43,414 bases of DNA, from positions 1 through 43,414 of IMG/VR virus record IMGVR_UViG_3300035139_000065. One strand, 5' to 3'. Source of the stretch: a virus (lineage: Duplodnaviria > Caudoviricetes). Made by a program: the position numbers and the translations under genes. A model generated the notes under the pieces. The model saw nothing but the letters and a program-made list of their open reading frames with translations. It searched no databases and was not told the DNA's origin. Below, piece by piece: positions 6,920-40,898 of this stretch (its first letter is position 1; every line of letters starts with the position of its first letter).

Positions 6920-8137
6920 CTAGACGCTCACACCGACGTTGGTCGCCTTCACGATCGCATCCGTCTCTTCGAAGACAACCGACACCTTCAGCGTGATCAC
7001 GTACTGGTTCACCCGCTTGTAGATGTCGCGGTCCTTCTCGATCCGGATATCGCGGCCGATGGCGACGATGAAGTTGGACATGTGCGTGAGGAGGATCTGC
7101 GGCTGCGCCTGATAGGTGACCTTGTACGTGGTCGCAGGCAGGTTGATGTTCGTGATGACGCCAGTCGTGTAGTTCACGCTGTAGTTGACCCCCTCAACAT
7201 ACGGCGTGGTCGGAGTGCCAGCGAGAGCCGCCGGAAGGATCGTCAGCGAACCGGCAACGACCGGACGGTAGCGCAAAGCAACCGTGCCCGGAGCCGCCGG
7301 AATCGCAACGTGCTCGACGATCTTCGGCGTGTGCGGGAACAGCGGAGCCGCAACCAACTGCACACCATACGGAGTCAGCCGAACGCCGCTCTGGAGAGCC
7401 TGATCACCGACCGCCGTGGCGCGCGTGCTGGTCTTCTCCCGGTACAACTGCTCAAGGTCGGGCGAGCAGAAGAACCGAAGCTGATCCATGTTCCGACGCC
7501 ACTTCGTGGGAAGCTGCGTCAGCATGCGGCTGAACACCGTCGGACCAACGTTGGCTCCCGCAGCATCGTACAGGTGCGCGGTATCGGCCGACCGCAGCCA
7601 CCCGTTGAAGAGAGCCATATAGCTGTCCTTGATGTACTTGGTCGTGTCGCCGCCTTCGATGTAGTCGCTTTCGAGGATCGCAGCACCAAGCGTGTCACCG
7701 TTGATCGCAAGATCCTCGATGTCGTTGTTCGTCTGCTTGGCCATCATCTGCACGATGTGATCAAGCAGCGCGGCTCCCTCAAGGTTGATCTCGCCAACGA
7801 TGTCCGAGACCTCCCACGGCACGATGATCTCGCGTGGCTGGAGGACGATCTTGGTCGTCGTGATGCCACGACGGTAGCGGGGATCGGCTGCCTCCGCGGC
7901 AGGCAACGCAACGCGGCGCGCGAGACCGATCTTGTCGATCTCAGCCGTCTCGGGCTTGAAGCGCATGATGCGCGCGTTGTTCTTGAGCATCGACTGATCG
8001 ATGATGTAGTCGATGAACTTGTCTGCCTGCTGCGGATTGAGCTTGCCCGCTGCGGCAAGAGAGTCAGCGGCGATGACCGCCTTCTCAACCCGGTTCTTCT
8101 GCTGCGCCATCAGTTCTTCGTTCGTCGGGGTCGGCAT
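6920..8137 (-). CDS. Major capsid protein (HK97 fold)
   Basis: GKLNPQQADKFID, EDLAINGD, GRDIRIEKDRDI motifs. AGGAG RBS before ATG at 8137; strongly biased codon usage. Confidence 0.92.
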   Translation of the reverse strand: MPTPTNEELMAQQKNRVEKAVIAADSLAAAGKLNPQQADKFIDYIIDQSMLKNNARIMRFKPETAEIDKIGLARRVALPAAEAADPRYRRGITTTKIVLQPREIIVPWEVSDIVGEINLEGAALLDHIVQMMAKQTNNDIEDLAINGDTLGAAILESDYIEGGDTTKYIKDSYMALFNGWLRSADTAHLYDAAGANVGPTVFSRMLTQLPTKWRRNMDQLRFFCSPDLEQLYREKTSTRATAVGDQALQSGVRLTPYGVQLVAAPLFPHTPKIVEHVAIPAAPGTVALRYRPVVAGSLTILPAALAGTPTTPYVEGVNYSVNYTTGVITNINLPATTYKVTYQAQPQILLTHMSNFIVAIGRDIRIEKDRDIYKRVNQYVITLKVSVVFEETDAIVKATNVGVSV

Positions 8138-8196
8138 GTTCTTCACTCCTTTTCCTTTTGCTTGGGTTGCTCCCAAAGCCTTCGGCGGTTCCCCGC

Positions 8197-9237
8197 CTAC
8201 AGAATCCCATCCCAGATGCTCGTCTGCTTCTCGACGGGCTTGCTGGTCCCATCCTGCGGGATAGCACTGGGAGTGCCGCGCGTCTTGTCCGCTTCCTCAA
8301 GGCGCTTGGTCAACGCCTCCACCTTCTCCTTGGTGTCAGCAAGCTCCTTCTCGACCTCTTCGAGCTTCTTGGTGTCGCGCTTGCCCTCTTCCATCTCCTC
8401 TTCCTCCTTGTCCGGCTTCTTCGCGGCAGCTTCCTTCTGCTCGATGCCGAGTTCCTTCATCATCGTGCCGAAGGCATCGGGATCCATGTCCTTCACCATG
8501 CCAAGCAGCGCGGAAACGGCGGTCTTGACGGCTTCCTTGCGAGCCGGAGTGAAGCGCTTGCCCTTCTCGATGTCTTCGAGACCGGAGATCTCCACCGCTC
8601 CGTCCTCACCCCACTTCAGGGTGACGCCCTTGCGCGTCGGCTTCTGGTAGTCCTCTTCCTCGCCCGGCTTGCCAGCCATGCGCGCCTCGACCATGTTCAT
8701 CGCCTTGGTTGCGATTCCGGCAATCTGCTTCAGGGCGGCAGCGGCAGCCTTCAGCTTCTTGTTGTCGTCCTTGCCGTACTCCTGCTTCTCGACATCCTCA
8801 ACCACGTCGGACAGCGACTTGCTCAACGTCTGCACGACATCAACGGCATCCGTCAACTGCCAGAGCATCCGGTTCATCGAGCACACGCGCTTGTGCAGTT
8901 CCTCAACGTCCAGATCGGTGGTGGAAATCTCCTCCGCGAGCTTCTTCACCGCAGCGATCTTCTCCGCAGCGATCTCGCCATGCCGGGTGAGCATCACCTT
9001 CTGCTTGTCTTCGGTAGTTCCCTCTTCCTCCGACGGGGGCGCTTCACCTTCCGTCTTCGTGACGTCCTCTTCCTTGGGCTTCGTCTCGGTGTTGTCCGAC
9101 ATGACCGCTCCTTCCTTTCGCTTGATGACCTTGAATTCCTCCTCGTTGGCCGGGCGGTCAACAAGGGATACCTCGCTGACGTCAATGTCCGTCAGCCGCT
9201 TGCTTGGCTTGCGATCCTTCGTCTTTTCAGTGGGCAT
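8197..9237 (-). CDS. Capsid scaffold protein with an N-terminal protease-type EVSLVDRPAN segment
   Basis: Charged, coiled-coil-rich protein directly upstream of the capsid gene, ending SIWDGIL. Begins with LTDIDVSEVSLVDRPAN. Confidence 0.8.
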   Translation of the reverse strand: MPTEKTKDRKPSKRLTDIDVSEVSLVDRPANEEEFKVIKRKEGAVMSDNTETKPKEEDVTKTEGEAPPSEEEGTTEDKQKVMLTRHGEIAAEKIAAVKKLAEEISTTDLDVEELHKRVCSMNRMLWQLTDAVDVVQTLSKSLSDVVEDVEKQEYGKDDNKKLKAAAAALKQIAGIATKAMNMVEARMAGKPGEEEDYQKPTRKGVTLKWGEDGAVEISGLEDIEKGKRFTPARKEAVKTAVSALLGMVKDMDPDAFGTMMKELGIEQKEAAAKKPDKEEEEMEEGKRDTKKLEEVEKELADTKEKVEALTKRLEEADKTRGTPSAIPQDGTSKPVEKQTSIWDGIL

Positions 9238-9260
9238 AGCTATCGCCTCTGCACCGGTGC

Positions 9261-9269
9261 AGTATAACA
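9261..9269 (-). promoter_or_regulatory. Putative extended -10 promoter for scaffold and capsid genes
   Basis: Minus strand TG-T-TATACT in the intergenic gap, next to the TGCACCGGTGCA palindrome. No clear -35. Confidence 0.4.
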
Positions 9270-9318
9270 GAGGCACAGCGACGTTGTGTAGTAGACAGGA
9301 ACAGAGAGCGAACGGAGA

Positions 9319-12300
9319 CTAGCGAACCGGCGTCACCCTGGCGATACCACCAATGCTGAAACCGACGATGCGGCCTTCCTCCACTTCCTTCCACGTCTGC
9401 GGATCCAGCACTTTCACCGCCATCACCCAAGAACCCTTCGTTACCTCATGGCCACCAAGCGTGAAGTCGTCCGGCGCGATGTAGCTTTCAACCAACTGCA
9501 AGTCCCGACCAAGGTCCCGATGCATGTAGCCGATGACGTTGCCACGCCTGTATCCAAGAAGGAACTTGTGTGCAGCAGCTTCAATATTTTCCGCGTCGAC
9601 AATGTCACCTTGAGCATCAGTAGTGTTTGGCTTCAGAACGATGCCAACAACGATTTGCTTCTTCTTGTCTTGCTTCAGGATCGGCATCGTAATCGCCAAG
9701 CTTTTGTTCAGAGCCTCGCTATCGAACTCCTGCTTCTTCGGACGGGATACCATCCATGCGCGTCCCCCCGCTTGCTCCGCAGCCTCGCCACGGCCAACGG
9801 GTACGAACTGGAAAATCCACCGACCCTTGAGAAGCCTGCCGTCGAAATCGAATTCCTTGTAGTGCCGATCCTGAACTCCCGCACGCCATCTGTACGTGTC
9901 GCGAATCAGGAAGCGGGAGAACGCATCCGGGGTTGAACCCACCGCGCCGGGCGGAAAGACCTTCGGCTTGCCGCGACCGATCTGCATCCAAGCAAGCGGT
10001 CCGCGAACCGGCTCGGCCTTCTCGATCGACTCGTCCCCGACGCTACTGACTACGGCACCTCTGCCGCCCTTGATCTTGAAGTTCATCAGAATCTTCAGAT
10101 CCGGATCATCGCCTGTAGCGATCAACTTGAACTTGTTTGGCTTGAACTGGTTGCCTGGAGTGAAGCCTTCCCCGCCTTCCCAATACGTTTCCTTGCCCGG
10201 TCGCAACCGGAAGTCGGTATGGATGGAAACCGGTTCGGCGCGAGCAATGAGCGTCTGCTGCGACTTGCTCAGCTTATCGACCTCCACACCACCCAGAAGT
10301 CCTCCCAAGCTCTTGGCGTTACCTTCCTGCGCTTGCTTGTATGCAGAGCTAACATCCTTGCCGACGATATCGCTCAACTCGCCAAGCTCCGCATCGGTCA
10401 ACTCAACCGGATCCCAACCGAAGTCTTGCGTCAACTTGGTTTGCAGTTCACTCAAGCCGCGCTCGTGCGTCTGCAAGACGCCAGTACCGCTGTCACCCTC
10501 CTTGAAGCTGAGAACGCCTTCCTGCTTGACAAGGATATCAATCTCAACCTTGTCTTCCGCTTGCTGCTTCTCTACTGCCGCCTCATCCCGTTTCGCAAGT
10601 CCGGCGCGACGCAACTGGCTGAGCACATCCGGAGTGGCTTGCAGCACGTTCGCGTCGTGTGCGCGATCGATGATTGAGCGAACACCGTCAGCCTGGACGG
10701 TTCCCGTCTCCAGATCTTCAACACGAGGCACGACGGCGGTAACCGTCCACGTCTTTGCTTCCTCGTCGTAGCGCGGAATGACCTCTTCCGCAGACAGCGT
10801 GAGCACATCGCCCGTCTTGGCATCGACACTCGTATTGAAGGTCTTGCCCAACCGACGAAGCTCGCCCTTCTCGTCCTTGTATCCGACAACGTAGTTGTAC
10901 GTATTACGCGAACTTCGCACCCGGGTCCGATCGATAACCTCGACCTTGAACTCAAGCAGGTTCTTCAGCTTGGCCCATCCGGTTGACTGTCCAGTCAACG
11001 GGTAGTCCGAGGTTGTTACTTTCACGACCGCACCCTCGCTGCCCTCCTCCTTGCTGAAGCGCTTGATCGCCTTCATCAGATCCGCTTTCGAAGACACGAT
11101 AACTGGCTTGCTCAGCTTGAAGGTTGCGAAGTCGTGACCCTTGAACAGTTGCTCAAGCAGCTTGCGCGCCTCCAACCAAGACAGCGTATGCAGATCCTTG
11201 CCATCCGCATAGAGCAGATGGAAGACGTGAGCAACCATCTTTGCCTTCTTGCCGCTTGGAGTCGTGAAAGTTCCGTCTTCACTAACCTTGGTTTCCTTCG
11301 AGATCAATCCGGACAGTTCCACACGGGGAACCACACCACCACCCTCGTATCGCGCACCAACATCCATATCGAGGATAACGGGCTTGCCGATGACCTTCAG
11401 GTCTGCGACGATTGGAGCAAGCTGCTTGGAGCGATCGGTCTTGCTGTCCTCGAAGTAAACCAACGTGTCCTTGCCATCGTACTGCGCGATGGTTCGATAG
11501 CCGTTGTACTTCTTCTCAACAGCAAGGCGCGTGCCCTCGTCGATGAACGGCTTGGCCCACTGCTCCCAGAACTCATCCGGAGCGAAGAACTCCTGTTGTG
11601 TGTAACCGCCTGCCGTCTTCAGCGGAGTGAACGTCTTGAGTGGCTTCAGTTCCGCCTTCTCGATGTTGACCAGTTGCAAGGGAACCCGCTTGACGGCAAC
11701 CAAGTCGTACATGGGAAGATAATCGTCGTGCGGCCCCTGCGGAATGTAGGTGTGGTGCAGCTTCTCCCGCACCTCCTTCGGAAACAGGTTGCGAAAAGCA
11801 ACATCCATTCCACCGATCGCATCACCGGCACGCCACACAACGTCAATGTCCTCGGGGTTGCTTCCCTTGATCGCGCTTCCAGCGAGGGAAAGGAAATCCC
11901 TCACAACGGTGAAGTCCTGCAAGTAGGCAGTCACCGGGCTAACGTCCGTCATGGTCTTGTCCACCACGATGATCGCGGAGTTCGTTCGTGTGCGGTGAAA
12001 CTCATGCGCGAACGGAAGCTTTGCTTCAAGCACCTTGTCCCGCAGATCGTTCAGCGTCTTGAATGTGTGCTTGTGCGTCGCGTCGCGTCTGATGCCAAGC
12101 GGAATCAAGTGGATCGCCTTGCGAGAGGCAACACGGGTAGATTCGGCAAGCGCCTGATTGAAATCCTTGATGTGCTCAAGGACGTGCATTGAGAAGACAA
12201 CATCGTACAGTCCATCGGAGAACGGCAGTTCCGCAGCATCGGAAAGAATGACCTCATGCCCTTTTGCCCTTGCTTGTCCTGCCGCGTACTCCGATACCTC

Positions 12301-12888
12301 CAACCCTTCTGCATCGACCCCGCTTGCCTTCAGGATGTCAAGCGCCCGACCCATTCCGCTTCCCAACTCCAGCACCGACGAAACGTCATCGGGAACCCAC
12401 TTGAGCACAGAGGCAAGATCGGCAACGAAGCCAAGATCAACATCCTTCAGCCCGGCAAAGTAAGCCTCGTTGTAGCTCTTGCCACTGAACTTGCGTGTGC
12501 GCTTGCGTCTTGCTGCGCGATCCAATTCGTCGTGAGTGGAGTGCTCCATCTCCCGCCGTTCCATCTCCTCAAGCACCAATAGATGCACTTTCACGAACTC
12601 AGGCTTCGTCAACTCCAGCTTACCGGAGACTGCCGCGTCCCAGAGTTGGTGAAGGCGAAGATGGAGATTGAGCAACGCTTCATCGTCTTCCTTGCCCAGC
12701 ACCTTCGGTTCTTCGAGAACGCGAGCCAAGGCAACCTTGACCAGTCGCGTGATCTCCTCCGGCTTCGCGTCCCTAATTTCCGGCAGCTTGATCCTCTCCT
12801 CTTCGAGAAGTTCACCGCCCACCCGTGCGGGAGGTGCCTTGCCGTCAGTCAGCGAACCAGCATCAATCTTGCTTGTCTCTTTGCCCAT
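9319..12888 (-). CDS. Multidomain protein: DenV-like helical domain, SAM methyltransferase, nucleotidyltransferase, ATP-dependent ligase plus OB fold, LigD-like phosphoesterase, XkdF-type prohead protease
   Basis: VLELGSGMG...DAAELPF...HVLEH (MTase); LAGS...DIDVV (NTase); EKKYNGYR, EGAVVK, WAKLK (ligase); QTHERG...HTDFRLR...LKGRWIF (PE); VVGIVLKP..TDAQGD...VESYIAP...KGSWV...GFSIGG (XkdF). Confidence 0.85.
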   Translation of the reverse strand: MGKETSKIDAGSLTDGKAPPARVGGELLEEERIKLPEIRDAKPEEITRLVKVALARVLEEPKVLGKEDDEALLNLHLRLHQLWDAAVSGKLELTKPEFVKVHLLVLEEMERREMEHSTHDELDRAARRKRTRKFSGKSYNEAYFAGLKDVDLGFVADLASVLKWVPDDVSSVLELGSGMGRALDILKASGVDAEGLEVSEYAAGQARAKGHEVILSDAAELPFSDGLYDVVFSMHVLEHIKDFNQALAESTRVASRKAIHLIPLGIRRDATHKHTFKTLNDLRDKVLEAKLPFAHEFHRTRTNSAIIVVDKTMTDVSPVTAYLQDFTVVRDFLSLAGSAIKGSNPEDIDVVWRAGDAIGGMDVAFRNLFPKEVREKLHHTYIPQGPHDDYLPMYDLVAVKRVPLQLVNIEKAELKPLKTFTPLKTAGGYTQQEFFAPDEFWEQWAKPFIDEGTRLAVEKKYNGYRTIAQYDGKDTLVYFEDSKTDRSKQLAPIVADLKVIGKPVILDMDVGARYEGGGVVPRVELSGLISKETKVSEDGTFTTPSGKKAKMVAHVFHLLYADGKDLHTLSWLEARKLLEQLFKGHDFATFKLSKPVIVSSKADLMKAIKRFSKEEGSEGAVVKVTTSDYPLTGQSTGWAKLKNLLEFKVEVIDRTRVRSSRNTYNYVVGYKDEKGELRRLGKTFNTSVDAKTGDVLTLSAEEVIPRYDEEAKTWTVTAVVPRVEDLETGTVQADGVRSIIDRAHDANVLQATPDVLSQLRRAGLAKRDEAAVEKQQAEDKVEIDILVKQEGVLSFKEGDSGTGVLQTHERGLSELQTKLTQDFGWDPVELTDAELGELSDIVGKDVSSAYKQAQEGNAKSLGGLLGGVEVDKLSKSQQTLIARAEPVSIHTDFRLRPGKETYWEGGEGFTPGNQFKPNKFKLIATGDDPDLKILMNFKIKGGRGAVVSSVGDESIEKAEPVRGPLAWMQIGRGKPKVFPPGAVGSTPDAFSRFLIRDTYRWRAGVQDRHYKEFDFDGRLLKGRWIFQFVPVGRGEAAEQAGGRAWMVSRPKKQEFDSEALNKSLAITMPILKQDKKKQIVVGIVLKPNTTDAQGDIVDAENIEAAAHKFLLGYRRGNVIGYMHRDLGRDLQLVESYIAPDDFTLGGHEVTKGSWVMAVKVLDPQTWKEVEEGRIVGFSIGGIARVTPVR

Positions 12889-12903: not shown

Positions 12904-14022
12904 CTAGAGGAACGCGGAAGTATCCGAAATATCTACTGTACACCTACAACGTCCGTGGTATGGAGGGAATCCGTAGCCCGCATCGATCATCTTCCCAGCC
13001 GTAGCTTGGGACCAACGACCGGGTCTTTCCGCTGCACGGCGGTAATCCCCAACTGTACCCCAAGGGTGCAACCGTTCACGCACCGCCGTAGGCGAAGCAC
13101 CTATCTCCTGCTGGAGATGATCGTAAGCTTGATCAACAGGCATGTTGATTGCGTGGCCGGACATATACCGACACTCCGTGCACGTTCGTTCGTCCAGTGG
13201 GTTGACTACAGTGTACCGCGTAGCACCAACCGATTGCATCGCTGTCAGTTGTCCAGCAACGCGAGCGGTTGTCATTGCGTTTGCAGCAACCATCTCGAAA
13301 TACTCTCGGGTAGAACCGCGCCAACCGGTAGGTATCTCGGCATAGGGACCGGTGAAGGGATCGCGCGGATCATAGTCGAACTCGCGCCTAAGCAACCTCG
13401 CAAGCTGTTCTCCTGCTCGCTTGGGATCTCCACCCGTCTCCCGAATTGCGGTTCGAGCAATCCGACGCACCGCAGCGGCGATGTTGCGCTTGTAGTGTCT
13501 ACCAATCCAAAACGTGTGCTTCTCTGCCAACGCTCTGACGGCTTCCTCGTCGGCAACGTCGAAGCTAGCAAAGTCGAACCCAAGCCCCGGTGTTGTTGTC
13601 GTCGGAGCTTTGCTCACCGGTACGAAGTCATACCGCAGCGTGCCCCGGTACTTGCCTTTGATCTTCTTGTTCATCGCGGAGATTCCGAGACGGAATCCTT
13701 CGCGCAGCGTCTCTCGCGTGCTGTCGAACAATTCCTCCCCAAGGTTAGCAAACGCGCTCTCAACCATCTTCAGAGCGGCGCTGAGATCCTTGGCTGTGAC
13801 CTTGCCCTTGGATGCTCTGATTCGCTGTGTTGCTTGCTTGACTGCCCGCTCGGCTCGCTTGCTCCAGGCCCGCTCTACTTCCTTGCGGAATCGCTCTTCG
13901 ACAAGAACCAATCGTCGCCACTCAGGCAAGACCTTTGCTTTGACAAGGATCTCATCGATCGCGTTCAACCCCTTGATGAGTTGCGCGTTGCTCAGCGAGC
14001 CGCAGGCGCAGCCCTCATGCAT
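12904..14022 (-). CDS. MuF/SPP1 gp7-like minor head (head morphogenesis) protein
   Basis: DERTCTEC and PPYHGRCRC motifs; sits immediately after the portal with an overlapping start. Confidence 0.88.
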   Translation of the reverse strand: MHEGCACGSLSNAQLIKGLNAIDEILVKAKVLPEWRRLVLVEERFRKEVERAWSKRAERAVKQATQRIRASKGKVTAKDLSAALKMVESAFANLGEELFDSTRETLREGFRLGISAMNKKIKGKYRGTLRYDFVPVSKAPTTTTPGLGFDFASFDVADEEAVRALAEKHTFWIGRHYKRNIAAAVRRIARTAIRETGGDPKRAGEQLARLLRREFDYDPRDPFTGPYAEIPTGWRGSTREYFEMVAANAMTTARVAGQLTAMQSVGATRYTVVNPLDERTCTECRYMSGHAINMPVDQAYDHLQQEIGASPTAVRERLHPWGTVGDYRRAAERPGRWSQATAGKMIDAGYGFPPYHGRCRCTVDISDTSAFL

Positions 14023-15760
14023 CGGGCTTCTCCCCACCCTCAAGCTCGGCTTCCATCCAAGCGCGTAGCTTCAGCAGCGAGTTCAGCACGACAAGAGCAT
14101 CCTCGTCGTTACCAAGCAACGACTTCATCGTTGCCGTATCAACACCAACCGGAGCAACCTGCGTGCTGATTCCGGCCGGAGCGGAGTTCTTCACGCGCTC
14201 CGCGATCTGCAAGGTCAACGGCACGTCAGGATCCATGTCCTTCCAGTTCTCTGGGAACTCGCGGCCCATGATGTCCTCGATGATGATCCGTGCGATGCGC
14301 GGAGTCATGCCGCCCGTCTTCTCCGCGGCAAGCAGCACCTTGATCAGATCCTCGTCATCAGTCACGTTGGGACCAAGGCTCTGGAAACGGTGGTACTTGA
14401 TTTCCATCACCGGAAACAGACGGTGGTTGACCCAATGGTCGAACTCGTTTCGCTCCGGGGCGAAGATCTGCTCATCGGCAAGCTTGCGGCTTGCTTCGGC
14501 AGTCGCCCGGTTGTAGGTCTTGGCATCGCCGCAGAAGATGGGCGGGAGGCGGAACGACTCACGCACCTTCTTGCGGTTGTTCTCCCCATACGCTTGGAAC
14601 AACTGATCCTGAATCTGATCGTTGGTCAACCGTTCAAGCTCAAGCTTGGGCGATCCTGTCTCTCCCGGCTCCTGCGCAAAGGGACTCTCAGCCTCGATGA
14701 GCAGGAACTTGCTGCGATTGCCCGAACCGGCAATCTGCTGTTCGCTGAACTGCTTGATGCGGTCGAGAGAGCCTTGTGTCAGCGCACCCCCGCTCACGAT
14801 AATGATCATCGAAGGCATCATGTTGTTGGCGAAGGTGGTGTAGTTGACTCCATCCGCTTCCCGATCGCCAAACAGCGTGATCAGGTTGCCGATCCAACGA
14901 GGCAACCCATACGGCGAACGCGGACAGTACAGCTTGAAATGCACCATCGGCGTAGCAAGCTTGACGCTGCCTTCCTTCATCTCCTTCTCGGTAACCGGAT
15001 CGCCCGTCTCGGCGTTGATGGCGCGCGGATCGCCAAACTCCTTGAAATACACCGGCCGATCATATGCCGTCTTCCAGCGACCATCCGTTCCGAGTCGCGA
15101 GAACTGCACGATGCGACGGAATCGCTTCTTCGCCTTAGCCACCTCGACGGCAACCGAACCGTCATCGATCCGTACAAGCCGCTTCTGGTCGAAGGGTGTT
15201 AGCTCCTTGTCAATCGGAGTCAAGCGCATCTGATAGCTTGGAACGTGAACAAGCTGATCGATTCGTCCAGCCTTGTTGGCAACAAGCTCGAAGTAAGCGT
15301 TACCAGTCGCCTCCAGATCGCGCCGCACCCTACGCCGGAACGCAACGAACGAATAGTCGAGACAGAAGTGGGCGAACAAGTTCTCAAGGAAGATACCCTC
15401 CTTCCTCACTTCTGCTTTCAGACCATCTGATGCTTGATCGCCAAGCTGCACTCTCCGGACGAACTTGTGTCCGAAGCCATCGATGTTGATTTCAAGAGCG
15501 GCAATATTCTGCTCTAGATGGGTCGAGTTCTCGATCATCGTTGACAAGCCAAGAGGATCATAGGGCGGCTCGATTACCCTGCCAGCATCCACATAGGCAG
15601 ACAGATCGGGATCCTCAAGCACAACGTTCGATTGTCCCAACTGTTCTTCGATTCGCTTGACGATAGGACTCACATCGATGATGCGTGCACGGATCTTCCT
15701 GACAGGCTGCTCCGGATCAACCGCCTCGGGAGCCTTGCCCTCTTCGCTCTTGCTTTCCAT
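14015..15760 (-). CDS. Portal protein (PBSX-like family)
   Basis: IEPPY, DLEATGNAYFE, YGLPRW, FRLPPIF and NRATA motifs. Confidence 0.92.
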   Translation of the reverse strand: MESKSEEGKAPEAVDPEQPVRKIRARIIDVSPIVKRIEEQLGQSNVVLEDPDLSAYVDAGRVIEPPYDPLGLSTMIENSTHLEQNIAALEINIDGFGHKFVRRVQLGDQASDGLKAEVRKEGIFLENLFAHFCLDYSFVAFRRRVRRDLEATGNAYFELVANKAGRIDQLVHVPSYQMRLTPIDKELTPFDQKRLVRIDDGSVAVEVAKAKKRFRRIVQFSRLGTDGRWKTAYDRPVYFKEFGDPRAINAETGDPVTEKEMKEGSVKLATPMVHFKLYCPRSPYGLPRWIGNLITLFGDREADGVNYTTFANNMMPSMIIIVSGGALTQGSLDRIKQFSEQQIAGSGNRSKFLLIEAESPFAQEPGETGSPKLELERLTNDQIQDQLFQAYGENNRKKVRESFRLPPIFCGDAKTYNRATAEASRKLADEQIFAPERNEFDHWVNHRLFPVMEIKYHRFQSLGPNVTDDEDLIKVLLAAEKTGGMTPRIARIIIEDIMGREFPENWKDMDPDVPLTLQIAERVKNSAPAGISTQVAPVGVDTATMKSLLGNDEDALVVLNSLLKLRAWMEAELEGGEKPDA

Positions 15761-15763
15761 GAT

Positions 15764-16645
15764 TCACTCCAAGTCAGCCGGAATGTCGTTGCAACCATCC
15801 CAATGGTCGGCAACGGTTGTACCGTCCGGCAAAGTTGCTTCGCAGGCCTGTGAGTAGCGCGAGCGCACTCCGGTGAAGTAGGTCTTGAACCCACTGTCGT
15901 GCACGCAATCCCCTTGGTTGTAGGCAGCGATACCAAGCAAGGGGTGATCATCCTCATCCAGTGGGCAGATCGCTAGATGCTCGACGACCTCTTGCACGCC
16001 AACCGCCACGTTCCATTCAACTCGGTCGATGAACTGTCGCCGTTCGTGCTGGCTACGTGGGAAGATGAAATGACCATCCTCGCAGTAGTCGGGGTTGCCA
16101 TCGTACTCCCCGCAGCCATTACCAACGGGCAACCGCACCCGAGTGCCAGATGAGAAGTTGTTTGGGAGCAACTGAAAGTAACCATGCTCGCGGGCACAGC
16201 AGGTGTCGACACGGTACGACCGCTCATTGTGCGTGACGATGTGGACGTTGCGCGTTACCTGCCGTTCGCCACCTCTCCACGTCCACGTCATCCGCGTCTC
16301 GCAGTATTGCTCCCCTTCACGCGGCTCGATAGCAACGATGCGATCGACCCCCACCACCTTCTGGCAGATGATGTCGGTGTCGCCGTGGGCAACCGAGTGC
16401 GACAGGTCGCCTAGGGTTGACTCCTTCTCCGCAACCATCGCCATCATCAAGCAATCGATCGGTTCTTCGTACAGTTCGCACGTCCGGGCGAGCGTGCGCG
16501 TGAAGTCGTCAAGCGCGTTCTGCCCCGATTCCTGCAACGACTCACATCGCTCTAAGTTGCGTTCTCCGACCTCATCGCACGCAGTCTCCTGCCAGCGTGG
16601 GTGGAAAATCAGCAATGCATGAAAGAGCAAGATTGCCAGTTCCAT
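15764..16645 (-). CDS. Cys-rich lytic transglycosylase (SLT-like) with hydrophobic N-terminus
   Basis: SLT motifs in order: AEKES (catalytic Glu), GYFQL, WNVAVG, AAYNQG. GAGGAG RBS before MELAILLFHALLIF. Confidence 0.7.
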   Translation of the reverse strand: MELAILLFHALLIFHPRWQETACDEVGERNLERCESLQESGQNALDDFTRTLARTCELYEEPIDCLMMAMVAEKESTLGDLSHSVAHGDTDIICQKVVGVDRIVAIEPREGEQYCETRMTWTWRGGERQVTRNVHIVTHNERSYRVDTCCAREHGYFQLLPNNFSSGTRVRLPVGNGCGEYDGNPDYCEDGHFIFPRSQHERRQFIDRVEWNVAVGVQEVVEHLAICPLDEDDHPLLGIAAYNQGDCVHDSGFKTYFTGVRSRYSQACEATLPDGTTVADHWDGCNDIPADLE

Positions 16646-16652
16646 GTTCTCC

Positions 16653-18134
16653 TCACAGCAATCCCGGTTCTTCTCTCCGTTTGCGCTCTCTTGGTTTGAA
16701 CCGGAGCAAGCCCAGCGCAATCTCCACGGCATCGAACAGATCGTCATGCCCGTGTGGGAACGACACCAACCGCTCGATGACGTGGAAGTGCTCGGGCTTG
16801 AAGTGGACGCGATGTTGCTGGAACAACGGCGTCAGTTTCCATGCCCTCGTTACCTTGTCCTTCAGAGGGTAGACCTTCCGGATAGGCCAGTTGGGATGCT
16901 TGCGCTTGAGTTCGTTCGCCTGCGCAGCTTGGTACGCAACGGCTTCGATGCCAAGCGCAAACAACTCACGCTCATAGTGTCCGCCGAAACCTTCTATCGC
17001 CTCCTGTTGCTCGATGAAGCCAAGACGCCGCTCCATGAAGTCAAGCAGCCAGAAGTGATCGTTGCTGTCCCTGCCGAAGGCAGCCATAGCAAAGTAGTCG
17101 TGCGACGTCTTCTTGCCGATGGCAAGGTCGGATCCGATTCCCACCACCAACGTGCTTACATCCGGGTACTCTGCTTCGGTGTTGATCACGAAGTCATCGT
17201 AGTTGAAGATCTCGCCCCGCATCGCTTCGGTGTCGTTCTGGTACTGGCTGTTGAAGATGATGACGCCAGAGCGCTCCCGTTGCTGTCTCAGGAACTCCGT
17301 AGTGAAGCGCTCCGGATAGATTGACTCGTCGTCCTCGTCCAGGGCCGGGATGATGAGCGTGCTCTTCTTGTATTCGTGCTTCAGGAAGTGTCCATACAGG
17401 TCTTCGTGGTGGTAGCGGGTGCCAAGCACATGCCGCTCACCTCGATGCGGAACCGCGGGATCCGGTGGAAGCAAGCAAGGGCTGAACACCTTGTAATACC
17501 ATTTGCGGATGTTGTCTCGCTGATGATCGGTGCGGCTGTTCTCTTCGTCAACCGCGTCATCGAGAATGCCAACGTCGAAGTGCTTGCTCGCAACCGCGCT
17601 GCCGACGCCGACAGTCATCACCGTTGGCTCTTTGTAGATGCTAGTCCGTTGTCGCACCTCGATGGACGATTCATCCCAACGTCGTTCGCCAACGTAGTCC
17701 CCGAACAACTCCCGTAGCTCTTCGTTGGATTCGAACTGCTGCTTGATGCTGCGAAGCATGTCGGCCGCGTTGCTGGCAACCTTGCTACCAACCAGAATTC
17801 GAATGTTGGGGTTCTTCAGGACAAGGTGGATCACTTTCGCAACATTGCCGATGACAGTCTTGCCCATGCCGCGAAAAGCAAGCGTCTGTGAGGTAGCGTT
17901 TGCGAACTGATGTTGAATGACGGGAAAGTGTGTTCGGTGATGCACATCGTAGCCCAGCACCAACTCACACAACACGTCGAGCCGGTTGCGTTGCAACACC
18001 GCACGACGTATCCATTCACGGTACATGTCCCGGCTATGCACAAGAAGGTCGATCAAACCCTCCTTCGTGCGAGCGGAATCGATGACCGCTGACGAAGCGA
18101 TACGGCGTTCGATGTCGGTAGTCGGGGTGCCCAT
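16653..18134 (-). CDS. terL: Terminase large subunit
   Basis: Walker A FRGMGKT, Walker B ILDD, LGTRYHHEDL, nuclease GSDLA, EAVAYQ and HDDLFDA. Confidence 0.95.
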   Translation of the reverse strand: MGTPTTDIERRIASSAVIDSARTKEGLIDLLVHSRDMYREWIRRAVLQRNRLDVLCELVLGYDVHHRTHFPVIQHQFANATSQTLAFRGMGKTVIGNVAKVIHLVLKNPNIRILVGSKVASNAADMLRSIKQQFESNEELRELFGDYVGERRWDESSIEVRQRTSIYKEPTVMTVGVGSAVASKHFDVGILDDAVDEENSRTDHQRDNIRKWYYKVFSPCLLPPDPAVPHRGERHVLGTRYHHEDLYGHFLKHEYKKSTLIIPALDEDDESIYPERFTTEFLRQQRERSGVIIFNSQYQNDTEAMRGEIFNYDDFVINTEAEYPDVSTLVVGIGSDLAIGKKTSHDYFAMAAFGRDSNDHFWLLDFMERRLGFIEQQEAIEGFGGHYERELFALGIEAVAYQAAQANELKRKHPNWPIRKVYPLKDKVTRAWKLTPLFQQHRVHFKPEHFHVIERLVSFPHGHDDLFDAVEIALGLLRFKPRERKRREEPGLL

Positions 18135-23330: not shown

Positions 23331-23683
23331 CAGCCATCCCTCTGTCTCTCCAACTCAGCAATGTAGAGTTCGATGTGCTGGTTGGCCCGCTCGATGCTCT
23401 CGACGCAGAGCGATGCAACATCAGAGACCTTCTTGACGCTGTTGATCACGTCGTACAACCCATGTCCGGGAGCTATCAACGCAAGGGCAACCTCGCATTC
23501 CTCAGCGCTCTGCATCTGGAGCAGTTCGGCAATCGTCTCCTTGACCGTGCCTCGGATGCTGTTCATCGTCGTCTGCGCCATCAGGTAGCGAGCAAGTACG
23601 TTGTTCATCGCAAGGATCGCCAGTTCGCGATTGCGATCGATCGCTTCCTGCCCCTCTTCTTCCTGTTTCGTCTTCTCAGCCAT
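23330..23683 (-). CDS. Hypothetical helical protein
   Basis: GAGG RBS, in operon order. Confidence 0.6.
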   Translation of the reverse strand: MAEKTKQEEEGQEAIDRNRELAILAMNNVLARYLMAQTTMNSIRGTVKETIAELLQMQSAEECEVALALIAPGHGLYDVINSVKKVSDVASLCVESIERANQHIELYIAELERQRDG

Positions 23684-24500
23684 CTTCCTCATCCTCCTTT
23701 GGCACGAATACCGGTCGCCAGTTGAAGTCCTCGCCAGCTTCGACGAGAACGAAGCAGTTCATCCGCTCGATACACTCGCCTTCATCCTCTAGTCGCTGCT
23801 TGCATCGGTAGAACTTGCTTCCCGCGCAAGATGCGGTGACGAAGTCGATTCCGTAGGCACGTTGTTCACAGTAGACGTGATCGTGCCCGGTCAACACAAG
23901 TTCGACCTGATCGCGGATGATTGGTAACAGGAACTCGCGCAGCAGTTCCGCCTTCACCTCCCTCCGTCCCTGCGTCGAGCAGATGTACAACGGGTGATGC
24001 AGGACAAGCACTCTATATCTTGCCCGGGATTCTTGCAGTCGATCGCGCAACCACGACAGCGAGTAGCCACCGATTCCCCATGGCAGAGCAAACACGTCGA
24101 CGCAACCACACTCAATATGAATCGGCCAAGAGTGCGGAGCATGATCCAGCACCCAATCAAGATCATCCCAATCGTGGTTGCCTTGCGCGGTATACCAAGG
24201 AACCGACCTCAACGGCTGTATCGCACGTTGATGCTCTTCCCACGGATGACCTTCGTCAACGTTGTCACCACCCGACACCACAAAGTCGATCGGTCGATGC
24301 ATGGGGCCGGTCTGATCTCCGGAAAGCTCCAGAGCCATCGCCCGAACAACCCTCTGAAAGGCAGGGCTGTCTCCGTGCGCGTCGCTGTAGAACAGGAAGG
24401 CGCAAGGCTGGCAGGGAGGCGGTGGCGGGGGTTCGGGAATCAGTTGATGCAACGGAGGCACCAACCATCCGAAGACGAGCGCCAGCAACAACCCGATCAT
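23676..24500 (-). CDS. Exported/membrane-anchored metallophosphoesterase (calcineurin-like, purple acid phosphatase-like)
   Basis: DAHG, GDNVD, GNHD, HHP and GHDH motifs; hydrophobic N-terminus followed by a poly-Pro linker. Confidence 0.88.
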   Translation of the reverse strand: MIGLLLALVFGWLVPPLHQLIPEPPPPPPCQPCAFLFYSDAHGDSPAFQRVVRAMALELSGDQTGPMHRPIDFVVSGGDNVDEGHPWEEHQRAIQPLRSVPWYTAQGNHDWDDLDWVLDHAPHSWPIHIECGCVDVFALPWGIGGYSLSWLRDRLQESRARYRVLVLHHPLYICSTQGRREVKAELLREFLLPIIRDQVELVLTGHDHVYCEQRAYGIDFVTASCAGSKFYRCKQRLEDEGECIERMNCFVLVEAGEDFNWRPVFVPKEDEEDG

Positions 24501-24503
24501 CGG

Positions 24504-24806
24504 CTACTTCGCAACAGCCTTGGTCAGCTTGCCAACCAGCTTCTCCAGATCGGCAACCTGATCGGTCGAGATTGCGATGCCCTTCTTGGTCGGCAGGTAC
24601 TCTCCAGAATCGGAGAGGTAGAACACGCGAAGGTCGGCGTAGGTGCGTCCGCGGTACGTGTTGATCTGCGCACGCACCTCTTCCGCCGCGTTGCGCTTGA
24701 AGCTGCCGATCACAACGTTGCCATCCGGCGGCTTCTGCGGCTTCTCGCCCTTGCTCGCCTTGCCCTTCTTGCTCTTCTTCGTCTTGGTCTTCTTCTCGTC
24801 GCTCAT
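24504..24806 (-). CDS. PC4/YdbC-family ssDNA-binding protein
   Basis: INTYRGRTYADLRVFY...GEYLPTKKGIAI, the PC4 signature. Confidence 0.88.
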   Translation of the reverse strand: MSDEKKTKTKKSKKGKASKGEKPQKPPDGNVVIGSFKRNAAEEVRAQINTYRGRTYADLRVFYLSDSGEYLPTKKGIAISTDQVADLEKLVGKLTKAVAK

Positions 24807-24901
24807 AGCATCCTCCTGATCGCGATTCCCACTACCGGCAGCAACCACGCAACCGGCTTGTATGATCTATACTAGACGGTGTTGGCGGGTTTCGAGCGCT
24901 G

Positions 24902-25363
24902 CTAGGGTTCGGTTTTCGCGCAAGATCGGCAGATCCACTTCTCACCGTCGCTGGTTTGCGATTCTCCGCACGTCGAGCACGGCGGTCCGCTATCGGGCGG
25001 AATCGAAGCTTGTGGATCCTCAAGGAACTTCACCACCAGCCATCGAGCAATGTAGTCCATGATCGACTTGGCGTAAGGAATCTTCGGATTGCCGGTGTAA
25101 CCGGAGGGCTCGAAACGCATGTTGCTGAACTTATCAACAAAGACCCTCAACGGCACACCATATTGCAAAGCAAGAGAAATACTAAGAGCAAAAGAATCCA
25201 TCAAACCGGAAAGCGTCGCACCTTCCTTCGCCATCTTGACAAAGATCTCTCCGGGTTCGCCGTTCTCATACAAACCAACGGTGATGTAACCCTTGACTCC
25301 GGCAATCTCGAATCGATGGGTGATGCTGTTTCGCGTATCTGGAAGCCTACGGCGCTCGTTCAT
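24902..25363 (-). CDS. Stand-alone TSCPD-domain protein (C-terminal part of class II ribonucleotide reductase NrdJ) with Zn ribbon
   Basis: RRRLP...GYITVGLYENGEPGEIF...LALQYGVP...RFEPSG...SIMDYIARWL, then CSTCG...CRSC. Confidence 0.88.
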   Translation of the reverse strand: MNERRRLPDTRNSITHRFEIAGVKGYITVGLYENGEPGEIFVKMAKEGATLSGLMDSFALSISLALQYGVPLRVFVDKFSNMRFEPSGYTGNPKIPYAKSIMDYIARWLVVKFLEDPQASIPPDSGPPCSTCGESQTSDGEKWICRSCAKTEP

Positions 25364-25372
25364 CGTGGCACC

Positions 25373-25621
25373 TCAATGCACGGCGTCTTCGCTGCTGCCG
25401 ACTACATCGCATTCCGCCAGGAACTCGCATTCGGCGCAAGATTTGGAAAGGCGGTTCTTGCATCGTTCGCTGTCTTCCTTCTCTTGCAGATCGCGGTTCA
25501 CCCTCTCAACGACCCGACGTGCTTGTATCCGTTTCTGCGCTCGCTGTCCGCAGGCGCAGCCCAAGAGGAAGATGCCGAAGGCAATCGAGAGAAATGCAAT
25601 CACATACATGACGATGGTCAT
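25373..25621 (-). CDS. Small membrane protein with C-terminal Cys cluster
   Basis: N-terminal TM helix; CxxC motif. Confidence 0.55.
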   Translation of the reverse strand: MTIVMYVIAFLSIAFGIFLLGCACGQRAQKRIQARRVVERVNRDLQEKEDSERCKNRLSKSCAECEFLAECDVVGSSEDAVH

Positions 25622-27357
25622 CTTTGCTTTCCCTTCTTCCGCTTCCGCTTCACACTACGCAGCTTGATTGAAACACGATGCTTCGTCTTCGCAGCAGCGA
25701 TACGGCACGCTGCGATCTTCACGTAGTCAAGCACGTTGTCTGCGCCGATGAAATGGAAGCCCTCAATCGCGCATGCGATGCCTGTTGTTCCGCTTCCCAT
25801 GAACGGGTCGAGAACGACGCCCTTGGGTGGTGTCACCAACCTAACCAACCATTGCATCAGCTTGAGGGGCTTGACGGTTGGGTGCTTGTTGCCCTCGCCG
25901 CGCTCCCGCCTCGATGCCTTCGCGCAGTAAAAATAGCGGGACGCGCCACCAGTGTCGCCCCGATCAACGGGATACGTCGCGCGACATCCCCTCTTGAAAT
26001 CCACCGTCCCGCGCTTCGCTGACTTGGGTCGGATTCCCCCCATACGCGGTTTCACTGGCCCGGATATCCCACTCTGCTCGTCGAGTGCCCGCGCTGCGTC
26101 TTCGTCTAGCACGAGGTTCGCGGGCCAGCGGCCGGTTGTGGTTGTTCCGTCGGCTAAACTCCCCTGTTTGAAGTCGGCCGAAAACTTACGCGCCTTGTTG
26201 ACACCAACTATCTTGGGGCGAGCCGTGCATTGAACCCGACACCCGTCCACGTTGATCGCGCCCGTGCCGTGCTTCAGTAGATTTGCAGCAACGGTGCCTT
26301 CAAGGGGTTTGCGGGCAAGGATCCAATACTCAATCGCAGGCTTCAGTGCAGTCCCAAACCCTTCCCACTTCCTTGCCTGCTTCGTTGCTGAATGCGTCTT
26401 CGGCGGGCGAGGTGGTGATTGCCATCCGGTCGAAGTTTCACCTCTTGTCTTGCAGTACGGTCGATCCGCAGGGTTCTTGTTTTTGAACTTGCGTTTGCCT
26501 TCTGCGCCAAGGTGACAGTCGATTGCCTTGGATGCGTCTAACGATTTTGGAAATCCTTGCCCTGTTATATGGGCGATGCAATCTCTGATTTCCCAACCAG
26601 CTTTCTCCAAAGCGGTTGCTGTCCAATGCGATGTTCGCGGTAATGACCAAACAAGAGCATGAGACCCGGGCTTGGAAACCCGCAACATTTCCTTAGCTAC
26701 TTGAGTCATCCATGCAACAAACTCACGACGAGCAGGAGGCCCAGCACACTTGCCATGTTCCGTATATTGCCTAGACTCCATCAAGCGAGTCCTAGCATCA
26801 GCCATTTCTCGCCAGTCCTTTGGTTGGTGTCGAATCCAAGCATCTAAAGCTTCGACCCAAAATTCAAAGTCTCTAGCTTTCTTTGCACGAAGTGGCGCTG
26901 CACGAAAAACCTCAACCAGACGCAAACAATCTGCTTTGGAACTGACACAAAATCGCGCTTTCGGGTTCCCGCCTCCGGCTGGTTTCTTCTTGGATACAGC
27001 TACGGTCCCGATCCCGAGAACGCGCTTGATCTCGCGCAAGATCGGCGCATCATCACGCCGAAGCCCAATAGAGAACTGGCAATCATAAGTTTCGTAACCA
27101 CTTACATTCTTCTTGTGTACTGAAAAGCAACCTTCGCCATCTACGAACCCAGCAAACCAATTGAGAAAATCTGGAGGCGGAAAGTCACAACGAAACCGAT
27201 CCCAACTGCGGCCCATGAATGCAATACCAGCAGGCGGATCGGTCACGATTGCATCGACGCTGTTGTCGGGCAGACGCCGCATCACCCTACGACAATCGCC
27301 AAGGTACAGCAACGTCCCACGTCGCTTACGTCGCTTCGTCTTCGCCTTCTTCTTCAT
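25618..27357 (-). CDS. DNA N6-adenine/N4-cytosine methyltransferase (beta class) with an inserted LAGLIDADG domain
   Basis: SVDAIVTDPPA (motif IV), HPTVKP, VLDPFMGSGTTG (motif I); internal WFAGFVDGEGCF. Confidence 0.9.
   Translation of the reverse strand: MKKKAKTKRRKRRGTLLYLGDCRRVMRRLPDNSVDAIVTDPPAGIAFMGRSWDRFRCDFPPPDFLNWFAGFVDGEGCFSVHKKNVSGYETYDCQFSIGLRRDDAPILREIKRVLGIGTVAVSKKKPAGGGNPKARFCVSSKADCLRLVEVFRAAPLRAKKARDFEFWVEALDAWIRHQPKDWREMADARTRLMESRQYTEHGKCAGPPARREFVAWMTQVAKEMLRVSKPGSHALVWSLPRTSHWTATALEKAGWEIRDCIAHITGQGFPKSLDASKAIDCHLGAEGKRKFKNKNPADRPYCKTRGETSTGWQSPPRPPKTHSATKQARKWEGFGTALKPAIEYWILARKPLEGTVAANLLKHGTGAINVDGCRVQCTARPKIVGVNKARKFSADFKQGSLADGTTTTGRWPANLVLDEDAARALDEQSGISGPVKPRMGGIRPKSAKRGTVDFKRGCRATYPVDRGDTGGASRYFYCAKASRRERGEGNKHPTVKPLKLMQWLVRLVTPPKGVVLDPFMGSGTTGIACAIEGFHFIGADNVLDYVKIAACRIAAAKTKHRVSIKLRSVKRKRKKGKQR
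26735..27190 (-). mobile_element. In-frame single-motif LAGLIDADG homing endonuclease domain (boundaries approximate)
   Basis: FAGFVDGEGCF...FSIG...DDAPILREIKRVLGIG...PLRAKKARDFEFW, interrupting the MTase between SWD and REFVAWM. Confidence 0.85.
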
Positions 27358-40502: not shown

Positions 40503-40898
40503 TCACACCGGCCAGTGATACGGCAAGTCGGCTTGCTCCGTCCAGCCGAACTGCCCGTACCACTGCGGATCCTTCCTAAGCAGGTTGCTCCGATGCGACG
40601 AATGCAGCATGTTCCTGCCAAGCCACGGAGGCATCACGCACGAGTCCACCTGCGGCCTCTCTAGGTTGTTGACGTAGCCTCTCCTCACCCACTCGTCGAT
40701 CATCGCGGCAAGGTAGGCGCGGAGGGCGTTTTCGTATCCCCGCCACATGCGGACGGCAGGATGGTATCGCCATCCGTTGGATTGTCCGGCAAGCACTCTG
40801 AGGATCTGGTAAGCCTCTGCTCTCTGCTTGCCGAGACGCTGCCGATCGAGCACCTTGGCGCATGCTTCGAAGTCGGCGTATGGCAGGAACGTTTGCAT
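40503..40898 (-). CDS. Pyrimidine-dimer DNA glycosylase / DenV-like (MSMEG_6728-type) protein
   Basis: MQTFLPY..F...LDRQRLGKQRAEAYQIL...WRYHPAVRMWRGY...EWVRRGY...PPWLG...HSSHRSNLLRKDP. Confidence 0.85.
   Translation of the reverse strand: MQTFLPYADFEACAKVLDRQRLGKQRAEAYQILRVLAGQSNGWRYHPAVRMWRGYENALRAYLAAMIDEWVRRGYVNNLERPQVDSCVMPPWLGRNMLHSSHRSNLLRKDPQWYGQFGWTEQADLPYHWPV

Follow-up and report, generated by a model that had tools for sequence, protein, structure and literature searches.

Multi-enzyme chains encoded in the head modules of phages have been described as polyvalent proteins, in which assemblin-like peptidases are always C-terminal and probably process the chain during assembly, a role predicted for these peptidases by Iyer et al. 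in 2017 (PMC5512222, section 8). Such a chain was analysed in the IMG/VR virus record IMGVR_UViG_3300035139_000065 (Duplodnaviria; Caudoviricetes), whose full 43,414 nt are referred to as the window. The open reading frame (ORF) in question, P0001, is a real ORF of 1189 aa on the minus strand (9319-12888), and the polyprotein it encodes is like the polyvalent proteins in being a multi-enzyme chain of the head module, with the peptidase last, variable content and a proposed processing during assembly. It differs in its cargo and its protease, as the main text of PMC5512222 names no ATP-dependent DNA ligase or LigD phosphoesterase among the cargo ('ligase' occurs three times, at least once in a passage on 2H domains, and XkdF not at all) and, as far as covered, describes neither a split protease nor a cleavage motif; its architecture lists may include the family. 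The general layout, a polyvalent protein with a C-terminal assemblin peptidase, has been known since 2017, and no description of the cargo of the polyprotein was found in print, where the supplementary lists of Iyer et al. may hold it.

With LigD and the stand-alone LigD phosphoesterases (3n9b, 3p43, 3p4h, 5dmp) the polyprotein shares the His-His-Asp metal site, Arg52, the beta-barrel of the phosphoesterase (PE) and the presence of a ligase in the chain. Unlike LigD it has neither an archaeo-eukaryotic primase (AEP) nor Ku, His84 is exchanged for Gly or Gln and Tyr88 for Trp, the PE contains a helical insert of 80 aa, the ligase motifs are altered and the chain is fused to a head protease. The polymerase of LigD is an AEP primase according to the relevant section of PMC8656161, and it is unrelated to the nucleotidyltransferase (NTase) of the polyprotein. 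In the virus genome ANMV-1, for which an archaeal host is proposed, AJP62006 (KP703175) shares the NTase-ligase-OB-PE chain, located directly after the portal, and the K...P..W pattern in the PE, but it lacks the methyltransferase and the protease and is annotated as an ATP-dependent DNA ligase only; the main text of the ANMV-1 paper, in which 'ligase' occurs 0 times, does not discuss it (PMC4372165). ANMV-1 AJP62005 (L120:1913-3193) is annotated as a 'MutT-like phage hydrolase' and matches Phage_portal_3 (3e-22), and the next gene is the unrecognised family member.

The polyprotein consists of a small helical domain, a SAM methyltransferase, an NTase resembling the minimal nucleotidyltransferases (MNT), an ATP-dependent ligase, a domain with the LigD PE fold and a C-terminal XkdF protease, so that a single chain, whose gene is among the packaging and head genes, combines at least two unrelated enzyme domains. 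This architecture is real and widespread. Pfam matched the methyltransferase (aa 173-257, 1e-14), DNA_ligase_A_M (aa 452-642, 7e-14) and XkdF (aa 1070-1184, 2e-29), in agreement with the first-pass annotation, which had called these three domains from the sequence alone in a 1189-aa ORF between MuF and the scaffold. The position of the ORF was confirmed, on the minus strand, and so were the motifs cited for it, EKKYNGYR at 458, EGAVVK at 618 and WAKLK at 638 as well as QTHERG, HTDFRLR and LKGRWIF, while the helical domain at aa 63-127 had been overlooked. The features are:

9319..12888, minus strand: polyprotein ORF (P0001), 1189 aa
N-terminal group: NTase, METHYLTRANSFERASE, helical domain
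12508..12702, minus strand: small helical domain, aa 63-127, weakly T4 endonuclease V-like (family hidden Markov model)
11962..12468, minus strand: class I SAM methyltransferase, aa 141-309, in which E238-H239 and H272 are conserved; not present in all family members
11662..11922, minus strand: minimal Pol-beta-superfamily (MNT-like) nucleotidyltransferase, aa 323-409, with G337, D347, D349 and D395
10960..11649, minus strand: ATP-dependent ligase adenylation domain, aa 414-643 (Pfam, residue conservation)
10612..10953, minus strand: domain at the place of the OB fold (aa 646-759), lacking a canonical RxDK motif VI (from sequence only)
9730..10521, minus strand: LigD 3'-phosphoesterase fold with helical insert, aa 790-1053 (model, Foldseek, VIA, family profile)
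9331..9696, minus strand: XkdF (S78-type) protease, larger half, with H1123 and S1178 (Pfam, conservation)

A chimeric assembly, which would have undone the first-pass annotation, was rejected. Contigs from four of four wetland runs (possibly one campaign, with X1 possibly the source of the record) align to the record with zero joints or loose ends, contigs of X2, X3 or X4 span every one of the PE-protease, ligase-PE, NTase-ligase and methyltransferase-NTase junctions, 8 of the 11 variants inside the polyprotein gene are synonymous, and homologs have the same layout. The record itself is a linear virus contig, 41% complete.

The same architecture was also expected next to portal and MuF in other contigs, and there it was found. 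A single-sequence scan of viral contigs gave no result, but scans seeded on the PE and on the NTase gave 52 and 70 viral loci, respectively, located mostly in the interval from portal/MuF to scaffold/capsid. Among 19 full-length homologs, from a search in which 8000 candidates were scored, 16 carry the marks of methyltransferase, ligase and XkdF, and at 49 NTase loci (62 newly fetched minus 13 open-ended, not dereplicated) the same ORF contains the ligase in 41, the PE in 35 and XkdF in 32 cases. The PE alone retrieves 246 representatives (clusters at 50% identity), and among the best 150 of these, which include many fragments, XkdF is found in 100, the NTase in 76, the ligase in 69 and the methyltransferase in 37. 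XkdF is located downstream of the PE in 100/100 and at most 30 aa from the C-terminus in 99/100, PE-XkdF being the commonest domain pair in the family, and the NTase is present in 57 of the 69 ligase-bearing representatives. A cluster of 514 mostly viral proteins in the Atlas, with LigD_N marks in 86% and ligase marks in 25%, indicates that viral PE-ligase fusions are common in the databases.

The domain content varies among orthologs, with the methyltransferase as an optional part, and relatives contain inserted extras such as a uracil-DNA glycosylase (at least 5/31), a Dam-type methylase and a PNK-like kinase. In one relative, L078 (3525-5966), a metallo-beta-lactamase (MBL) hydrolase, two tandem PE domains (one matching LigD_N at 2e-15) and an HK97-type protease form a single chain; the link between cargo and protease thus outlasts a swap of the protease, as this PE-bearing ORF ends in an HK97-type one. 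Several members depart further from the common layout. The 2137-aa member L052:6812-13222 has three Dam-type methylase stretches inserted downstream of the NTase, L056:7695-10715 combines the NTase with an Acb1-like 2H domain, a methyltransferase and a zeta/PNK-like kinase and is without ligase, PE and XkdF, and P0018 contains two ligase domains, the second with the canonical motif I Asp, together with an MBL hydrolase, PE and XkdF. In the ligase-less relatives L007:5563-9186, L032:7152-8819 and L043:4687-8253 it is instead the MuF gene that is extended, by a HipA-like kinase (weak), an ADP-ribosyltransferase or 800 residues without assignment.

The PE of the polyprotein gave no match in Pfam or NCBIfam, but the LigD-type PE of the first-pass proposal was confirmed by its fold. 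The predicted model (pLDDT 91.7) has LigD PE in all of its top seven Foldseek rows, VIA aligned it to 3p4h with Z 13.5 (rmsd 2.2, 117 aligned residues; next unrelated row Z 4.1), and all five PDB matches of the family PE profile are PE structures. A search of BFVD returned one weak PE-like row and none at E<=0.001. When residues were compared, using a register taken from an alignment of the LigD-like relative L078 to PDB chains together with the family alignment, not from superposition, the equivalents of the metal triad and Arg52 were found to be kept in 113 non-redundant domains (H808 in 113; H890, D892 and R894 in 112). In LigD PE, His84 and Tyr88 are required for both activities, as far as covered in PMC3300020 and PMC8656161. 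In the family the His84 site (G963) is Gly in 72, Gln in 31 and His in 0 of 113, and the Tyr88 site (W967) is Trp in 112/113. Two residues, K938 and H1009, are new near-invariants over the 113 diverse sequences, and the invariant K938 falls roughly at the position of Glu82, a member of the monoesterase set Arg14, Asp15, Glu21 and Glu82, in a register uncertain by a few residues. Since the metal triad and the Arg are kept and His84 and Tyr88 replaced, the PE probably works as a metal enzyme whose phosphate site has been rebuilt, and 3'-phosphatase activity cannot be assumed for it.

A similar pattern was found in the ligase. Among solved structures it is closest to the DNA ligases of archaea and human (E 1e-22), the best NCBIfam ligase models are LigD, far below cut-off, and the NCBIfam ligase models extend to aa 682-732, into the OB position. 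RNA-ligase Pfam matches are weak. The motif I Lys/Arg, the motif IV Glu-Gly..Lys and the motif V Lys-x-Lys are all present, and the adenylate pocket is kept in the family (of 101 sequences, K460 in 100, R465 in 94, F556 in 90, E618 in 98, K640 in 100 and K642 in 94). K623 is also kept, while N462, D509, R522 and H557 of the polyprotein are atypical. The Asp of motif I is found in 42/42 cellular ligases but in 29/101 of the family, where Asn is found in 64/101 (N462 in the polyprotein); the Glu of motif III in 42/42 against 39/101 (here D509); and a position that is Phe in 42/42 cellular ligases is Arg in 100/101 of the family. The 'LRF' of the OB domain is absent from the family, and RxDK, present in 28 of the 42 controls, remains in 4/101, with D..R in place of it. 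The two altered Phe positions we take to be grips on nicked DNA. The pattern suggests an adenylation machinery that is intact and a substrate recognition that is changed. The polyprotein ligase is the only ATP-dependent ligase in two complete genomes, and in a third genome, 98% complete, PE-XkdF is kept and the ligase absent. A set resembling mRNA capping, i.e. a guanylyltransferase together with a cap methylase, is not favoured, as motif IV is of ligase type, DNA ligases are the structures that it most resembles and not every family member has the methyltransferase.

The NTase had been proposed on its GS..DxD motif, and near-invariant residues support the call (G337 in 106, D347 in 105, D349 in 106 and D395 in 98 of 106 sequences), as does a Pol-beta-type Pfam family matched by 25/54 NTase members; the fold match is weak. 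In VIA the top three rows are MNT entries at Z 5.0, 4.2 and 4.2, and Foldseek gave none at E<=0.001, the best rows being MNT proteins including HEPN-MNT complexes. With the minimal nucleotidyltransferases of HEPN-MNT systems (1no5, 8xeh, 7ae2) it shares the Pol-beta core of ~90 aa, the G[GS], the DxD and the third Asp, and it differs in that no HEPN partner was detected in the polyprotein chain and in a conserved GPH motif. At ~90 aa the domain is too small for a gap-filling polymerase, a candidate that was rejected also because Pol-beta itself was matched at E 0.6 only; it likely attaches single nucleotides, either to an end or to a protein.

The methyltransferase is nearest to an uncharacterised type (3cc8, which shares LEH..DxTH) and to small-molecule enzymes, and Hen1 chains match it as well (E 1e-8 to 2e-7), at rank 29 or lower of 159; its E-H...H motif presumably resembles the Hen1 metal motif. 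For the helical domain Pyr_excise was matched by 9/46 members (best 2e-5) and not by P0001 itself, and there was no match in the PDB or the Atlas. An active endonuclease V is unsupported, as a profile comparison, too, gave no match to the Pyr_excise gene of the window itself. That gene is a stand-alone pyrimidine-dimer glycosylase of the T4 endonuclease V family (40503-40898, minus strand; Pfam 1e-25).

When the C-terminus was analysed, the XkdF part was found to end ahead of the last strand of the S78 fold (EVSLV..PA), and this strand opens the next gene, the scaffold:

9121..9201, minus strand: strand at the scaffold N-terminus, corresponding to the one that the protease lacks at its C-terminus, with invariant E, A, N and K

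The protease His is invariant in 25/25 and the Ser in 87/87 sequences; the XkdF profile matched no solved structure. The scaffold strand corresponds to positions 123-155 of Pfam S78 (E 0.0055, 7/25 members) and, with a probability of 85.5 and E 6e-6, to the strand that follows XkdF within the chain in the single-chain relative L057. PHROG 3017 contains both protease pieces in permuted order, and P0015 has the strand at its N-terminus and no XkdF. Of 49 loci searched with a strict pattern, 26 have the strand less than 1 kb downstream and two offer too little DNA; the pattern undercounts, because the strand of L057 itself was also missed by it. The protease is predicted to be completed by docking on the scaffold. 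Split or permuted proteases may already be described by Liu and Mushegian (2004).

HK97-type proteases cleave after Lys. In capsid proteins of the family the leaders end in [IVFL]-x-K followed mostly by A, G, M or S, and such a Lys was found in 26/28 (of 33 leaders, five without the anchor were left out; the selection required a hydrophobic P3 but set no condition on P1'). The motif h-x-K followed by A, S, M or G occurs in 20-48% of the windows in 9/10 classes of domain junction, compared with 9% (399/4452) of interior windows. Junction windows with the motif number 270/837 against 87.5±8.5 when shuffled (maximum 119 in 1000; the class directly after the PE excluded), and in a stricter set 216/675 against 68.7±7.7, while Arg in place of Lys gives 47 against 45, i.e. 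no excess. These statistics come from related sequences, not independent trials, and the motif was first spotted by eye. Because the motif both ends the capsid leader and marks the junctions of the polyprotein, the chain is likely cut into separate enzymes. The sites are:

8078..8089, minus strand: end of the major capsid protein leader, h-x-K followed by A
11653..11664, minus strand: predicted cleavage site after K411, between NTase and ligase, strict match
10522..10533, minus strand: possible cleavage site after K788, between ligase and PE, Gln at P1', loose match
9700..9711, minus strand: predicted cleavage site after K1062, between PE and protease, strict match

The predicted pieces would be aa 1-411 (helical domain, methyltransferase and NTase), 412-788 (ligase), 789-1062 (PE) and 1063-1189 (protease).

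The genes surrounding the polyprotein follow the order terminase, 327-aa ORF, portal, MuF, polyprotein, scaffold and major capsid protein:

14015..15760, minus strand: portal
12904..14043, minus strand: MuF minor head protein, upstream neighbour of the polyprotein
8197-9276, minus strand: scaffold ORF
6920..8176, minus strand: major capsid protein (PHROG 1623, 7e-71, and position)

The 327-aa ORF in the gap between terminase and portal (15764-16747, minus strand) is Cys-rich with a hydrophobic stretch near its start and is without match in Pfam, PHROG and NCBIfam. Elsewhere in the window a LAGLIDADG domain, probably an intein, interrupts an N6/N4 DNA methylase (25618-27357, minus strand), and at 24504-25363 (minus strand) a PC4-like single-strand binding protein adjoins a stand-alone TSCPD domain, with a metallophosphoesterase at 23676-24500. 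Genes for Pol III alpha, DnaB, RecA and a lytic transglycosylase in the closest complete genome analysed (60/82 ORFs scanned) make bacteria the likely hosts of the window's clade. Five GTDB bins conflict on the host (Omnitrophota, Bathyarchaeia, Desulfobacterales, Pacearchaeota and Heimdallarchaeota), possibly as mis-binned viral contigs, and were not used.

Taken together we tentatively read the polyprotein as virion cargo that is released by the protease and acts on nucleic-acid ends early in infection, a reading held with somewhat less than even confidence as a whole. The N-terminal strand of the scaffold would complete the split protease inside the prohead, the completed protease would likely release the separate enzymes by cuts after h-x-Lys, and these enzymes would be kept in the head and sent with the DNA into the next host, where the ligase-like and PE-like pieces would most likely process, reseal or protect nucleic-acid ends left by host nucleases or decay. 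The chemistry would be a metal-dependent phosphoester hydrolysis and the activation of a 5' phosphate driven by lysyl-AMP; the substrate is probably other than the plain nick of cellular ligases. The changes in the active sites point to a function different from textbook repair of DNA breaks. Delivery by the protease, proposed already in the first-pass annotation, is strengthened by the split protease and the junction motif, and packaging remains a prediction; docking, cleavage and packaging are judged rather probable, and, if they take place, ejection and action on nucleic-acid ends are judged probable to the same degree. In SPN3US there is precedent for head proteins that are cut by the protease and ejected (PMC10052503, in its treatment of that phage), and the cutting at a short motif and the transport with the genome are shared with the ejection proteins of SPN3US, phiKZ-like phages and T4. 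According to the same treatment those are separate genes with propeptides, whereas here cargo and protease half form one chain with Lys at P1.

Several observations weigh against this reading. Peptides cut by prohead proteases usually exit the head (PMC10052503, as stated there in general terms), which makes retention the weakest step. Of the nine strict motif matches in the polyprotein two lie at junctions and seven inside domains or loops, none lies between methyltransferase and NTase, the junction class that follows the PE shows no enrichment (9/103), and a Glu control is mildly raised (81 against 61±8). By the strict pattern 21/49 loci are without a downstream strand. The PE is without His84 and Tyr88 and probably also without Glu82, the ligase may not join DNA, because it differs from the 42 cellular controls in the motif I Asp, the motif III Glu, the Phe present in 42/42 and the RxDK, and it is absent from 18/57 module-spanning relatives. 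Extras such as the MBL hydrolase (9/31), 2H/Acb1, ASCH and HipA-like kinase domains point to RNA, nucleotides or proteins. Finally, the family has no cultured member, its sole match among 50,697 phage records being the uncultured genome ANMV-1.

The same delivery could instead bring a mixed counter-defence set for which phage DNA is not the target. In that case host toxins or RNases would be AMPylated by the MNT-like domain, and the PE would have signalling nucleotides or cyclic phosphates to hydrolyse. RNA would be adenylated or resealed by the ligase and the product then marked by the methyltransferase, as in Pnkp-Hen1. The best structural rows of the NTase are MNT proteins including HEPN-MNT complexes, PE-XkdF survives without the ligase, relatives exchange in Acb1, 2H, MBL, ASCH and kinase domains, the changed pockets of ligase and PE fit a changed substrate, the methyltransferase has the conserved E-H...H and Hen1 structures among its matches, and CBASS can, according to a bioRxiv text (2026.03.04.709575) as far as it goes, be triggered by prohead proteases. 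Against this the nearest solved relatives of the ligase are DNA ligases (archaeal and human, E 1e-22) with weak RNA-ligase Pfam matches, small-molecule methyltransferases come ahead of Hen1, which is 29th or lower of 159, and the partners uracil-DNA glycosylase and Dam-type methylase are DNA-directed. Taken by itself the counter-defence set is possible but on balance doubtful, and action on nucleotides, RNA or protein is only a little less likely than action on nucleic-acid ends.

That the next host is never reached is improbable, though the normal exit of cut propeptides from the head (PMC10052503, again as generally stated) speaks for it. The fusion would then give late expression and release by the protease only, with the enzymes active in the producing cell while DNA is packaged, for instance in mending or marking it at the portal, or being destroyed like a scaffold; the NTase-ligase-PE chain of ANMV-1 is located directly after the portal with no fused protease, and the only ATP-dependent ligase of two complete genomes could serve late replication. 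A late promoter would however suffice for this, yet the protease link is kept in 100 of 150 representatives and across a protease swap, and the motif sites cluster between domains, as for release and not destruction. The LigD-style kit of the first-pass annotation, in which phage DNA ends are healed, extended and sealed by non-homologous end joining to circularise the genome or mend double-strand breaks, was too literal a reading and is not supported as stated. It has in its favour that ligase and PE fold are adjacent, that the NTase accompanies most ligases (57/69) and that the best NCBIfam ligase models are LigD, however far below cut-off. No AEP primase-polymerase was found in Pfam or NCBIfam, and no unassigned stretch of the polyprotein is long enough for one; Ku was found in 0/5 virus records, three of them at least 90% complete and the window's own 41% complete; the phosphate-binding residues of the PE and the ligase motifs are changed and the ligase is dispensable, all of which makes such a kit very improbable. 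Least probable of all is a PE that serves as a non-enzymatic structural anchor retaining cargo in the head: PE-XkdF is the commonest pair and two catalytic residues of LigD PE are lost, but across 113 diverse sequences there is almost no variation in the metal triad, the Arg or the two new polar residues.

In its boldest form, which we consider unlikely, the reading as ejected virion cargo would make the two-gene split protease the address label, on-switch and release knife of an enzyme cassette in a widespread group of bacterial and archaeal viruses, with ligase and PE re-engineered for a chemistry foreign to cellular enzymes, e.g. capping or shielding incoming DNA ends, or resealing and methyl-protecting RNA, before viral genes are expressed. 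The polyprotein gives the 2017 prediction of head proteases that load and release cargo a specific form, since the motif for cutting, the expected fragments and the putative activator are all named. If true, completion of the protease in trans would offer an easy means of confining proteolysis to the prohead, usable for loading capsids, and since the pockets of ligase and PE are conserved yet unlike the cellular versions, a new end-processing or anti-defence chemistry is plausible.

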